Source: Hormiphora californensis (Eukaryota; Animalia; Ctenophora). From it: 64,000 bases of DNA. The notes below the pieces were generated by a model. That model had not been told where the DNA came from, did no database searches, and was given only the letters and a program-made list of their open reading frames with translations. Where the stretch lies: the NCBI GenBank assembly GCA_020137815.1, contig CM035361.1, forward strand, positions 6,572,001 through 6,636,000, written 5' to 3'. Below are positions 16,628 through 64,000 of the stretch, in pieces. A program made the translations under genes and the position numbers. Position 1 is the stretch's first letter. Every line of letters starts with the position of its first letter.

Positions 16628-19600
16628 GTTGAGATAAACCGGAGATTCCGACTGCATCGAACTCACTATGAGATTGTGAAAACATGTGATTTTGAGTCAA
16701 CAAGGAGCGTCAGTCTTCGAATGAACCTTCCTCCAGGTCAGTTGAAACAAACTCTTTTACCTCTCTTTATCTCTCTCTCTCTCTTTATCTCTCTCTCTCT
16801 CTCTTTATCTCTCTATCTCTCTCTCTCTCTCTCTCTCTCTCTCTCTCTCTCTCTCTCTCTCTCTCTCTATCTCTCTCTCTCTCTCTCTCTCTCTCTCTCT
16901 CTCTCACTCTCTCTCTCTCTCGGTCTCTCCCTCTCTCTCTCTCTCTCTCTCTCTCTCTCTCTCTCTATCTCTCTCTCTCTCTCTCTCTCTCCCCAGGTTA
17001 TTTTCATTTCTCTACCACCTATCTCTAACTCATCCATGGAAATTTATCTATGTGTAAAATAAAAGTAGAAGTAGTTGCAATCTCCAAATCCCTCCTAACT
17101 TACCTTGCTCGACCTTCTCTCAACACGAGATGAACATTACAGTTCTTACCTTGTTCCACCCTGAAAAGACATAAATTCTTACCTCGATCTGAAAACACGT
17201 CCTAACACCTGCAGGTCGGTACTGTGTAATACCATGTACCTACGACACTAATGTATCGGGAGAGTTTGTACTCCGTTTCTTTACTTCAAAGGCCATCGAT
17301 ATCCGGTGAGTTGCAACACATGTTGCTATGGTTACTGCCCGGTGAGTTGCAACACACATGTTGCTATGGTTACTATCCGGTGAGTTGCAACACATGTTGC
17401 TATGGTTACTGTCCGGTGAGTTTCAACACATATGTTGCTATGGTTACTGCCATGGTTACTGTCCGTGGTTACTGCCGTAGTTACTATCTACCGTGGTTAC
17501 TACCATAGTTACTACTAAGTACTATAGTTACTAACCGTGGTTATTGCCATGGTTACTGCAGGTTTTTGGTTACATAATAAATCATTCCAAATAAGTCACC
17601 CAATACAAGCTGAAATTAGATACGAGAGATGTGAATGAAAGACAGATCAATAATATGAGAAATCGCGAAATGGGAGCCGGGGGAAAGAAGAAGAGCCAAG
17701 AATAAATAGCAAAATAAAAAATTACATAATAATTTTGTAGTTCAAGAAAACATGCCCTTGTTTTCTTGAATTGTATCAATTTTCAACCCCTTTTCACCCC
17801 CTTTTTACCCAGAATTTAGTTGAGTCACCTGACACTGTGTTCGTACTTTTAGAATAAAAAAGTATGAACAATTCAAGAATTAAGTGTAGTCCTTAGCTAC
17901 CTACACCTTCTTTAAAATCCCTAAGATAGCGTTATTTAAATTACTAAATTTATTACTCACTGCACTTTTTACACTCTGGAAGAGTTTCTTCGCTCCACTC
18001 TCCAGTCTCCAGACAAGTTGAGACTTCGTTCCCTAGCAACACATGCTTCTCTTTACACTCCACCGTTACTGTAGTTCCGAGTGGTTGAGATTCCCAGTTC
18101 TCCACAGTCGATCCAGGGATAGAGAATCCAGGGCAGGTTTCTGGTTTAGCTGAAAAATATAGCTTGTTATGTGTGTGTTGTCAATTATATGGTGAAGAGA
18201 TTATTTGAAAGGATCAGTTTGTTTCATTTCACTTACGTCTATAGAATTTAGAGGCTTTATCTGTCCCCCAAAATGCTATTTTGTCCACTATGTCTCCTTT
18301 CCATAAATCTTTACAGTCTGCACCCGTAAATGTGTAGGTGAGCAAGGTGACCCCGTTGCATTCTATCGTTAAAGTGTCTGCTGTCTTTGAGAAAGTCCAT
18401 ATCTTGGGTTCTTCAACCGTTGGTTGAATAGGCAGGGGAGCTGTCTCAGTGCAGGACTTCAACCAGTACGTTATCTCAGTTGATATGAGGTTAACTGCAA
18501 TCCAACGTTTATTTGTATAAAAACTGTTATAAGTATCTTGGGTGTTGTCATAGAGAATGACAGAAAGATAGTTGTTATTGCTGGTAGTAGAGTCAGTTTG
18601 GACTTGGAGAGGGACACTCTCTAAATCCCATGGAATCAGGGTGCTGCGTTCAACAGGCAGCCACAAGTTGCCTGAAACTATGGTATAAAGGGGTGAAGAA
18701 CTAAACTAACAAGTTGCAGATAATATTTTACCGATTATCAACGAAATTGTGAGCTGTTAAACAAAAATGTCTTTGTGCGAGGCGTACAGAATTGCCCATA
18801 TAAGACTGTCTTCGACTTGGTAAGGAAGTTACCCCTCCCTTGCCGGTGCGACTGTGGAGCAGCGTGCGCGATGTTAGAACCTGACAAGTTCTTGTTATGT
18901 TCTAACCCTCCTTTAAATTTGGGCGGGAAACAGGGTCGAGCAAGGTAAACAAGAACAAAGTTTCTTACCTGCAGCAGCTACAGTAATATCATAATTTTCA
19001 ATTGGTGGATTGATGTCCTGATCTGCTACCGTGGAAGACAGCGCTAGCATTCCATACAACAACACAATAAACATCGCTGAATATTTTTACTAAGAAGCAA
19101 ATAAAAATGGTGTTTGAATAAAAATTTTACATAGTCGACCGTCCTGGTTAATGGAAAATAAGCAATACAAGTCCAAAACAAATTAAACTCACAAGAGAAA
19201 TGGAAATGTAATGCTGTCTGTTTTGTTGATTGTCGCTACCCAAATGCTTACGTTTTTTCAGTTTTCTTCTTAGTATGAATTCTCGCATCGGAAAAAGATT
19301 ACAAAATGACCAAAATAATTTATAATGAATGGATGTGCAAGTTGCGTATAACGAGAAATGCAATAAGGACCTCGCACAAGAAACATTAACAAATTTTTGA
19401 AATCAATAGCGCTTTAAACTTTAAAGCGCTTTTGATTGCAAAAATTTCATGCACTACACAAAAAGCAGTACCGCTAAAAGGTCTTTAAAGTGATTCATGT
19501 AGCGCTCTAAAAAGCGTTTCAATTCCCAGATTTAGTGAATTTTTATAGCGCTTTACTTGGTGTATTTTATAAAGGAAGGGGAATCAGCTACAGTTTATTT

Positions 19601-62200: not shown

Positions 62201-64000
62201 GATCCTGTAAGGAACATGACAGAGGTTTTTCTACCTCTTATTCTGATCCTGTAAGGAACATGACAGAGGTTTTTCTACCTCTTATTCTGATCATGTAAAG
62301 AACATGACAGAGGTTTTTCTACCTCTTATTCTGATCCTGTAAGGAACATGACAGAGGTTTTTCTACCTCTTATTCTGATCATGTAAAGAACATGACAGAG
62401 GTTTTTCTACCTCTTATTCTGATCCTGTAAGGAACATGACAGAGGTTTTTCTACCTCTTATTCTGATCCTGTAAGGAACATGACAGAGGTTTTTCTACCT
62501 CTTATTCTGATCCTGTAAGGAACATGACAGAGGTTTTTCTACCTCTTATTCTGATCCTGTAAAGAACATGACAGAGGTTTTTCTACCTCTTATTCTGATC
62601 CTGTAAAGAACATGACAGAGGTTTTTCTACCTCTTATTCTGATCCTGTAAGGAACATGACAGAGGTTTTTCTACCTCTTATTCTGATCCTGTAAGGAACA
62701 TGACAGAGGTTTTTCTACCTCTTATTCTGATCATGTAAAGAACATGACAGAGGTTTTTCTACCTCTTATTCTGATCATGTAAAGAACATGACAGAGGTTT
62801 TTCTACCTCTTATTCTGATCCTGTAAGGAACATGACAGAGGTTTTTCTACCTCTTATTCTGATCCTGTAAAGAACATGACAGAGGTTTTTCTACCTCTTA
62901 TTCTGATCCTGTAAAGAACATGACAGAGGTTTTTCTACCTCTTATTCTGATCCTGTAAAGAACATGACAGAGGTTTTTCTACCTCTTATTCTGATCCTGT
63001 AAAGAACATGACAGAGGTTTTTCTACCTCTTATTCTGATCCTGTAAGGAACATGACAGAGGTTTTTCTACCTCTTATTCTGATCATGTAAAGAACATGAC
63101 AGAGGTTTTTCTACCTCTTATTCTGATCCTGTAAGGAACATGACAGAGGTTTTTCTACCTCTTATTCTGATCCTGTAAGGTTCACATGACAGAGGTTTTT
63201 CTACCTCTTATTCTGATCCTGTAAGGAACATGACAGAGGTTTTTCTACCTCTTATTCTGATCCTGTAAGGAACATGACAGAGGTTTTTCTACCTCTTATT
63301 CTGATCATGTAAAGAACATGACAGAGGTTTTTCTACCTCTTATTCTGATCCTGTAAAGAACATGACAGAGGTTTTTCTACCTCTTATTCTGATCCTGTAA
63401 AGAACATGACAGAGGTTTTTCTACCTCTTATTCTGATCCTGTAAGGAACATGACAGAGGTTTTTCTACCTCTTATTCTGATCCTGTAAGGAACATGACAG
63501 AGGTTTTTCTACCTCTTATTCTGATCCTGTAAAGAACATGACAGAGGTTTTTCTACCTCTTATTCTGATCCTGTAAGGAACATGACAGAGGTTTTTCTAC
63601 CTCTTATTCTGATCCTGTAAGGAACATGACAGAGGTTTTTCTACCTCTTATTCTGATCCTGTAAAGAACATGACAGAGGTTTTTCTACCTCTTATTCTGA
63701 TCCTGTAAGGAACATGACAGAGGTTTTTCTACCTCTTATTCTGATCATGTAAAGAACATGACAGAGGTTTTTCTACCTCTTATTCTGATCCTGTAAGGAA
63801 CATGACAGAGGTTTTTCTACCTCGTATTCTGATCCTGTAAGGAACGTGACAGAGGTTTTTCTACCTCGTATTCTGATCCTGTAAGGAACATGACAGAGGT
63901 TTTTCTACCTCTTATTCTGATCCTGTAAGGAACATGACAGAGGTTTTTCTACCTCTTATTCTGATCCTGTAAAGAACATGACAGAGGTTTTTCTACCTCT
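59232..64000. repeat. 44-bp tandem array (at least 108 copies), running off the window end
   Basis: Unit is GAACATGACAGAGGTTTTTCTACCTCTTATTCTGATCCTGTAAG, with recurring CCT/CAT and AAGG/AAAG variants. Confidence 0.97.

Follow-up and report, generated by a model that had tools for sequence, protein, structure and literature searches.

The window considered here is a 64,000-nucleotide stretch of the ctenophore Hormiphora californensis (GenBank assembly GCA_020137815.1, contig CM035361.1, positions 6,572,001 to 6,636,000 of the forward strand) that holds exons of a calpain, a poly(A) polymerase (PAP), and ATG2. The PAP exons splice together into stop-free frames and matched Pfam PAP domains, the ATG2 exons match ATG2 of Mnemiopsis and Bolinopsis, and the calpain exons share a single open frame, with Pfam Calpain_III recognized on two of them (E values of 0.064 and 1e-5). 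Three further calpain exons tested gave no Pfam match, and no homologue was found when the first calpain exon served as query. One protein in the stretch is identical at 55/55 amino acids to a protein of P. bachei; a metagenome scan for relatives gave 523 pattern matches, none of them confirmed. Median intron length is short, about 170 bp. The PAP block is doubled around an N gap, and its two copies differ at 15 of 578 exonic nt with no gaps and at 39 of 829 intronic nt with 19 gap openings. Parts of the ATG2 sequence are garbled, including a real exon near 55599, and ATG2 exon 5 is one base short relative to three public runs. Counting the doubled block once, the 31 introns of the three genes supplied a set of 62 junctions. 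Left out of this set was a possible calpain exon at 22842-22910, across which the frame is kept; a repeat at 22718-22837, which ends 4 nt upstream of this possible exon, was scored as non-straddling.

A repeat finder blind to annotation placed 11 of the 62 junctions inside repeated segments, comprising six donors (17305, 36318, 47979, 50813, 55701, and 56346) and five acceptors (26024, 49901, 50244, 53275, and 56219). These are listed below with weaker candidates and non-junction repeats. Copy counts at junctions are matches to a 12-nt junction core with at most two mismatches, except where stated.

17300 to 17451, plus strand: calpain donor 17305; four copies, period 36-38, 3-6 exonic nt per unit; 3/3 decoys lead to a premature stop
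25973 to 26039, plus strand: calpain acceptor 26024; two copies, offset -47; the decoy leads to a premature stop; boundary placed from frame continuity only
36279 to 36391, plus strand: PAP exon 4 donor 36318; two copies, period 53
38676 to 43457, no strand assigned: 54-bp G-rich array, purely intronic, in one of the two PAP copies; the second has about 1.5 units
47951 to 48280, plus strand: PAP exon 11 donor 47979; five core copies
48750 to 49913, plus strand: PAP exon 12 acceptor 49901; 41-bp unit made of 28 nt of intron and 13 nt of exon, present 28 times
50094 to 50247, plus strand: PAP exon 13 acceptor 50244; two copies, offset -134; a 21-bp pyrimidine-rich repeat lies in the interval
50771 to 50871, plus strand: PAP exon 15 donor 50813; two copies, period 55, allele-variable; second copy missed by the 12-nt core search and found by the blind finder
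51277 to 51307, plus strand: edge of the PAP stop codon; one copy in the window, 28-nt tandem duplication in public run X6
53180 to 53295, plus strand: ATG2 exon 2 acceptor 53275; two copies, period 57; decoy in frame, adding 19 amino acids
53860 to 53930, plus strand: ATG2 exon 4 acceptor 53920; two core copies, the second weak, at -46, and missed by the blind finder
55330 to 55620, plus strand: ATG2 acceptor 55599; sequence garbled and the three claimed copies doubtful; one copy by core search, one partial copy at -255
55695 to 55776, plus strand: ATG2 donor 55701; two copies, period 46; three core matches, one of them distant and perhaps due to chance
56025 to 56245, plus strand: ATG2 acceptor 56219; three copies, offsets -98 and -189; both decoys lead to stops
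56326 to 58154, plus strand: ATG2 donor 56346; 30-bp unit made of 21 nt of exon and 9 nt of intron, present 61 times
59232 to 64000, no strand assigned: 44-bp array of 108+ copies within an intron of ATG2; putative junction origin

The observation of junction repeats largely holds. A sequence-only reading of the window had counted about 14 repeated junctions, or roughly one in five; that proportion is about right (11-13 of 62), with 11 recovered blind and 53920 weak but allele-variable, while 55599 is doubtful and 59256 unverified. The latter had been proposed as a minus-strand acceptor, but its score of 9.1 was reached by 409 of 5,000 random 44-mers, and the frames beyond it stop after 5, 11, and 2 codons, so that it is rejected as an established site. 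The repeat claimed at donor 47979 is there, with five core copies rather than four; the same junction in the other PAP block copy (donor 38601) has one core and one decayed copy, so that copy number differs between the two. At calpain acceptor 26024, a protein model (P0005) starts upstream without splicing and lends the junction no support.

Copies lie 30-134 nt apart, and every core found keeps its AG or GT dinucleotide. Units of different junctions are unrelated in sequence and decaying. They take in between 3 and 40 nt of exon, the breakpoint not being fixed, and the exonic part can be very small (3 nt in the copy nearest donor 17305, 4 nt at 50244). At acceptor 49901, all 27 decoys reach a stop at one shared codon, and an older partial copy of the unit without an acceptor lies at 48491-48517. 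The earlier claim that the exon is always intact stands. Its corollary, that the first donor and the last acceptor are the functional ones, agrees with reading frames at five of the six donors; at 56346 and 53275 frame alone does not choose. The 56346 unit is in frame and stop-free, as are its nearest decoys, and a single 31-nt unit shifts the frame beyond the third decoy. The decoy of acceptor 53275 (at 53218) likewise keeps the frame and meets no stop, and aligning the region with two other ctenophores requires no insertion there. By eye, two X7 contigs connect 49901 and 53275 with the exons that come before them; these contigs are about 81-82% alike, and so from a diverged animal, and that they are RNA is a guess. 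They fix where the junctions lie, not how decoys are used in the animal studied here.

Public-run contigs (X3, X5, and X6, the last two from another sample and study) were compared with the window over 49820-54780. Alleles differ in whether they carry the copies at 50244, 50813, 53275, and 53920, and by eye about 6 of the 9-10 listed length-variant loci in this interval touch a coding edge. At donor 50813, record 4 of X3 covers 50755-50975 with zero differences, matching both copies letter for letter, and joints in X3 and X6 omit one copy. An X6 contig jumps 50077-50129, the segment that holds the second copy of acceptor 50244. At 53275 the X3 joint skips the copy, X6 joints run back over it, and the repeat is present in X5 and X6; at 53920 the joints of X3 and X5 skip the copy. 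Depth in X5 is, roughly, 9,323 within the 41-bp unit of 49901 against 236 past it. In X6, depth is zero at 49905 and in several intergenic bins. An assembly artefact produced by noisy long reads or merged haplotypes could draw on the garbled stretches, the doubled PAP block around its N gap, the base missing from ATG2 exon 5, and the X3 contig that lacks the 53275 copy. Against it stand the exact X3 match at 50813, the 53275 repeat held by another sample and study, the high X5 depth on the 41-bp unit, and substitutions shared in patterns along the arrays. Independent contigs thus bear out that the arrays are real at 50813, 53275, and, roughly, 49901, which rules out artefact as a general explanation; that it made the pattern is very improbable.

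Under a null of uniform placement, junctions are favored over native intron DNA by a factor of 2.1 to 3.4 (P from 1e-5 to 0.01), with 11 straddling repeats observed against 3.3-5.0 expected (P from 1.5e-5 to 0.003) and, in another variant, 9 against 4.3 (P = 0.010). The expectation rises from 1.8 to 3.3-5.0 when three long insertions are masked and whole periods counted, and to 5.3-7.7 when straddling pairs are allowed a two-fold longer persistence, at which point P spans 0.003-0.16 and stays below 0.05 in 9 of 11 masked variants; the persistence factor is assumed, and the window was selected after the fact. Masking the insertions, which we label TE-like ourselves, lowers the enrichment; Pfam found no family in either of the two ORF-bearing ones tested. 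Non-straddling intronic clusters make up 6 to 11 of 17 to 22, and at one setting six of eight lie 9-31 nt from a junction. Clusters number 17 in about 7 kb of native introns and edges, compared with 3 across 28.5 kb made up of intergenic sequence and insertions. Junction enrichment over background is found against uniform intron placement and is not decisive once longer persistence is allowed.

Repeats away from junctions bear on how the arrays arise. The X6 duplication at the PAP stop codon lies at a boundary that is not a splice site, and by eye it leaves the protein apparently unchanged. Arrays just as large grew from the purely intronic 54-bp unit and from an in-frame exonic unit (36 bp, 156 copies), so that expansion does not need a junction. 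Among 31 exon-exon joins sought within the copies at up to three mismatches, none was a real spliced join, the single match being the acceptor itself; this speaks against cDNA templating, which we reject. Intron gain by tandem duplication (the Rogers model) is also rejected, as no new intron between duplicated proto-splice sites was seen in ATG2, whose exons are contiguous relative to two other ctenophores.

The earlier statement that no description of such repeats was known does not survive comparison with published cases, although a literature search found none in a ctenophore. The closest match is to the "mirage" minisatellites of amphioxus (Adh3, globins BflGb6 and BflGb9, troponin C, and PGBD5; PMC3087553, PMC3902484), which in the cited passages are tandem copies at both 5' and 3' exon boundaries, many of them keeping AG or GT, with several per gene and copy number that differs between haplotypes while splicing is left normal (PMC3087553). 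Those passages give 2-7 copies, compared with up to 61 in this ctenophore, and normal splicing by RT-PCR, which here is inferred; the density reported here (11/62) was measured and tested against a null. In our window too the unit spans the boundary, both edges are involved, unit length falls within the reported 10-160 bp, and copy number varies by haplotype. The amphioxus Adh3 mirage reportedly shows somatic length instability. The 37-bp VNTR in intron 7 of human F7, with similar repeats in CBS, 6-16, lamin B2, and PDGF (PMC1557585), is polymorphic and has a first unit that spans the exon end, followed by identical pseudo-donors; that text describes isolated genes and donors only, with scanning shown experimentally for F7, whereas here five to six acceptors stand beside six donors, about 1 in 6 junctions is affected, and scanning is hypothetical. 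Human segmental duplications contain variable internal tandem repeats where exons meet introns (PMC2812944), which are likewise boundary minisatellites that vary between copies, but the passages cited tie them to new introns and alternative transcripts in young paralogs, while the genes here are conserved housekeeping genes. Fill-in of staggered breaks (CST, Pol alpha-primase, NHEJ) is a general source of short tandem duplications, described in the cited part of PMC8355091 for mammalian cells with no link to splice junctions or ctenophores.

We therefore consider that the repeats are mirage minisatellites (probability about 0.6), that is, frequent small tandem duplications that are purged in exons, tolerated and longer-lived at exon edges, and in some cases expanded by unequal exchange. 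Seeds would arise throughout native gene DNA, for example by the fill-in repair outlined in PMC8355091 or by slippage, and those within coding exons would be purged unless in frame. Straddling seeds would survive through use of the exon-nearest donor, as tested in human F7 according to the text cited (PMC1557585), and of the exon-nearest acceptor; the repeats probably persist because splicing would go on choosing the exon-proximal site, and leaky use of decoys would mostly end in nonsense-mediated decay (NMD). Because selection holds one copy, straddling pairs would stay recognizable longer, perhaps up to twice as long, and because introns are short, edges form a large share of the tolerated target. 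Only a few arrays would then have expanded by unequal exchange. The reading draws on the copies and their geometry, the intact frames, allelic presence and absence, stops after most decoys, and the 2- to 3-fold excess. Against it stand the junction excess that remains at P below 0.05 in most masked variants even with two-fold persistence, and the segregating length variants, whose youth should leave persistence no part to play. The kind of repeat is already known, and the junction excess is modest and may come from selection and persistence.

The sequence-only reading had offered two mechanisms, of which a high background of duplication with exon-proximal choice fits best, in line with the F7 and amphioxus papers, and a splicing- or RNA-coupled process left no positive signature. 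In the latter, R-loops, stalled spliceosomes, or pre-mRNA-templated repair would direct breaks to junctions, which would suit the residual excess and the far denser clusters in native gene DNA; that density contrast is also expected if insertions are young or coding, and the lack of spliced joins, the variable exon share, and a duplication at a stop codon make coupling quite unlikely. An alternative hypothesis, a "homology cliff," is that mutation is biased toward edges independently of splicing: repair or gene conversion between homologues would proceed through near-identical exons, then stall or switch template where an indel-rich intron starts, and so duplicate the edge. The contrast between exons and introns of the two PAP copies would suit this process, as would the heterozygosity of Hormiphora (about 3.2%, with indel rates raised in noncoding DNA, in the portion of PMC8527503 cited). 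The clusters 9-31 nt from junctions and the X6 stop-codon duplication point the same way, but most positions in short introns adjoin a junction, and the latter is a single case that frame survival explains as well. Human F7-type repeats, moreover, occur at low heterozygosity, and we regard edge-biased repair as unlikely. Functional decoys, which would adjust output by way of NMD or lengthen the protein with in-frame peptide repeats, could be read into the 30-bp ATG2 array and the 53275 decoy, and human 6-16 and CBS use their two nearest pseudo-sites in the text cited (PMC1557585). Since four junctions have alleles without the copies, the units are decaying and share no sequence, chance alone puts a third of offsets in frame, and the alignments with two ctenophores call for no insertion at 53275, such a function is highly improbable.

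The mirage reading is preferred, but given the 2- to 3-fold excess left at junctions, some edge-biased mutation may contribute. We speculate, tentatively and with more doubt than belief, that conserved exons set in indel-rich, hyper-polymorphic introns create a mutational hotspot at coding edges, where repair between homologues would duplicate splice junction and stop codon alike, and that mirages are general from ctenophores to chordates and segregate within populations. Such a hotspot would provide thousands of natural allele pairs for testing choice among identical sites. If the density holds genome-wide, mirages would be a common class of segregating structural variant down to ctenophores and not a lancelet oddity. 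Alleles with 1 versus 2 to 28 identical sites are suited to testing how exons are defined and 3' sites chosen in an animal that branched early, and the arrays mislead gene annotation and assembly.

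An annotation-blind search for local direct repeats (offsets of 10 to 400, score of at least 16, low-complexity filter) returned 18 repeat clusters in the calpain, poly(A) polymerase (PAP) and ATG2 genes, with a doubled PAP block taken once and a garbled stretch excluded, and 11 of these clusters enclose a splice junction within the repeated segment. Counted by junction, 11 of 62 lie inside repeats (six donors and five acceptors). A sequence-only reading had proposed about 14 tandem-amplified junctions; its copy counts were borne out by our recount and 11 of its junctions are confirmed, while the copy at 53920 is weak yet a real length variant and that at 55599 is doubtful. 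The array of 44-bp units at 59232-64000 holds an unverified candidate minus-strand acceptor at 59256, with an acceptor score that was reached by 409 of 5,000 random 44-mers. Because ATG2 is only ~470 of 1,950 residues in at 58915, this array sits in an ATG2 intron.

Spliced PAP exons give stop-free frames, and all four tested match PAP Pfam domains. Exon 2 of ATG2 shares 80% identity with Mnemiopsis and Bolinopsis, tblastn matches eight of 10 ATG2 exons clearly to the proteins of both ctenophores (exon 8 weakly), and a single open frame crosses exons 6 to 10. A single open frame also crosses the calpain exons; since only two of five tested match Pfam, frame and splice signals are the basis for the later boundaries in this gene. 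The calpain exon at 26020-26184 agrees at 55 of 55 amino acids with an entry labelled Pleurobrachia bachei, which together with the ATG2 identity places the animal in Pleurobrachia or very near it. The assembly is flawed in places. PAP exons 7 to 11 are doubled (37134-38601 and 44858-47979) around a gap of 100 N (44130-44229), with divergence of 2.6% in exons and 4.7% in introns, and the block is likely two unmerged haplotypes. One copy alone carries a 1.7-kb insertion (45455-47145) whose ends are inverted, as judged by eye; its minus-strand frame of 343 codons gave no Pfam match. The ATG2 consensus is garbled at 54400-55550, where Bolinopsis residues ~196 to 284 have no clean match and leave a broken trace at 55078-55176, and exon 5 lacks one base at 54256 relative to contigs from sequencing runs X3, X5 and X6.

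Under a null in which a surviving duplication lands uniformly on introns or junctions, and duplications confined to exons are lost, 1.8 junction clusters were expected against the 11 observed when all intron DNA was the target. Masking three long insertions, chosen by eye, lowers the excess to 11 of 17 clusters against 3.3 expected (P = 1.5e-5; the significance of all these comparisons is inflated because the window was picked for showing the pattern), and stricter score cutoffs gave 8 of 13 against 2.7 and 7 of 10 against 2.3 (P ~0.001 to 0.002). With unit length set to the full period and laxer filters, the counts were 11 of 19 against 4.6 (P = 0.0009), 11 of 22 against 5.0 (P = 0.003) and 9 of 18 against 4.3 (P = 0.010); adding back the intronic G-rich array of the dropped PAP block changed little (approximate P = 0.0001 and 0.002). 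If junction pairs are assumed to stay detectable twice as long, one copy being held by selection, P rises to 0.003 to 0.04 in the first set of variants and to 0.046, 0.092 and 0.16 in the full-period variants; three-fold persistence gives 0.19 to 0.43. An enrichment at junctions over the intronic background of 2.1- to 3.4-fold in these three genes is therefore likely real, and targeted mutation and survival are not separable from one window.

Contigs of four public runs were compared with 49820-54780, and the counts here are incomplete, covering the events listed. X3 is perhaps the source sample and was not treated as independent; X5 and X6 come from another sample and study. At 50813, one X3 contig covers both copies without difference, and another X3 contig and one from X6 skip a copy. 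The 53275 copy is skipped in X3, run back over in X6 and reached into by X5; the 53920 copy is skipped by X3 and X5 contigs, and the 50244 copy by X6. One X3 contig spans 49830-50077 unbroken (21 differences, 18 gap letters) and thereby suggests that some allele lacks the long 41-bp array at PAP acceptor 49901. Depth in X5 was 9,323 within the 41-bp unit versus 236 just outside, which, as depth is not copy number, is read only as a unit present in many copies. Between the PAP copies, donor 47979 has five cores and donor 38601 has one besides a decayed copy; a G-rich unit lying wholly within an intron has the opposite pattern (~1.5 units versus an array of nearly 5 kb). Two cases that the window lacks were read by eye in X6: a 28-nt duplication across the PAP stop codon and, perhaps shared with X5, a junction copy in the form of extra letters in intron 51116-51170 whose end resembles acceptor 51168. 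Background events lie off junctions at 54280-54382 and at intergenic 52349-52418, where X3 and X5 contigs run back 39 and 55 nt. A short element at 52884-52934, with a related piece near 53512, has a very high copy number, and loose ends are numerous there in each of the three DNA runs.

Two contigs of X7, which we guess to be RNA, start at 49899 and 53271, and in both the loose end reads by eye as the last part of the exon before. They diverge from the window (9 differences in 48 nt, 19 in 105) and support the junction positions 49901 and 53275 in a diverged animal. In translation, all 27 decoys (intronic copies of the splice site) of the 41-bp array hit a stop at the same codon, and the other decoys tested also reach stops in calpain (4 of 4), PAP (6 of 6) and ATG2 outside the 30-bp array (4 of 5); the decoy at 53218 is in frame and adds 19 amino acids. 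The 30-bp unit at ATG2 donor 56346 is also in frame and stop-free, and 57 of its 60 decoys stop as assembled solely owing to one 31-nt unit, which may be a sequence error. Because 28 nt of the 41-bp unit are intronic, use of the first AG after the branch point could be satisfied inside every unit, and exon definition or proximity would be needed to select one unit from the rest. CT microsatellites recur in introns shortly upstream of acceptors (16598-16627, 34446-34626, 36625-36852, 54138-54211).

Minisatellites whose unit spans an exon-intron boundary are a known kind of repeat, described in amphioxus under the name of mirages (PMC3087553). Human F7 is described with a 37-bp VNTR over a donor of which only the first site is used, and human 6-16 and CBS as also using two near pseudo-sites (PMC1557585); boundary repeats in young human paralogs are reported to be able to generate new introns (PMC2812944). 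No ctenophore case or genome-wide test was found in the open-licence literature, from which most subscription papers are absent; within it, the present repeats are new for the lineage, with notable density and allele-level evidence.

Two further features of the window are as follows.
7762-13379, within a minus-strand exon: 156 copies of a 36-bp unit, coding an acidic 12-aa repeat
29884-32689, opposite strands: two back-to-back reverse-transcriptase ORFs (Pfam RVT_1)
The 36-bp array has one irregular unit each of 35, 30 and 37 nt, and its intron-containing host gene is putatively transposase-like, judged by eye. A long minus-strand coding stretch at 1-4800 we take, by eye and from its motifs, to be a putative Helitron Rep/helicase.

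Units of all three types (junction, intronic and in-frame exonic) gave rise to large arrays; the exon contributes between 3 and 40 nt per unit, and the breakpoint is not fixed. A search of the DNA for spliced exon-exon joins gave no real one among 31 tested, which rules against cDNA templating. The sequence-only reading had offered tolerated background duplication or a splicing- or transcription-coupled process, and the former is what we favor, with a probability of roughly 0.6: general small tandem duplication would seed copies, those inside exons would be purged, those at exon edges would be tolerated and persist longer, and unequal exchange would later expand some. A break-repair route to such duplications is described in mammalian cells (PMC8355091). 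Mutation may instead be biased to edges where gap-free exons meet indel-rich introns, a homology cliff that we consider rather unlikely; such exons and introns do adjoin between the two PAP copies, the noncoding indel rate is reported as raised in Hormiphora (PMC8527503), and the X6 stop-codon duplication also fits. Coupling of duplication to splicing is less probable still, the residual junction excess being its sole support. To the bolder reading, that coding edges are a mutational hotspot, we give a probability of about one in four. Intergenic and insertion DNA held three clusters in 28.5 kb, a scarcity that fits young or coding insertions equally with transcription-linked mutation.
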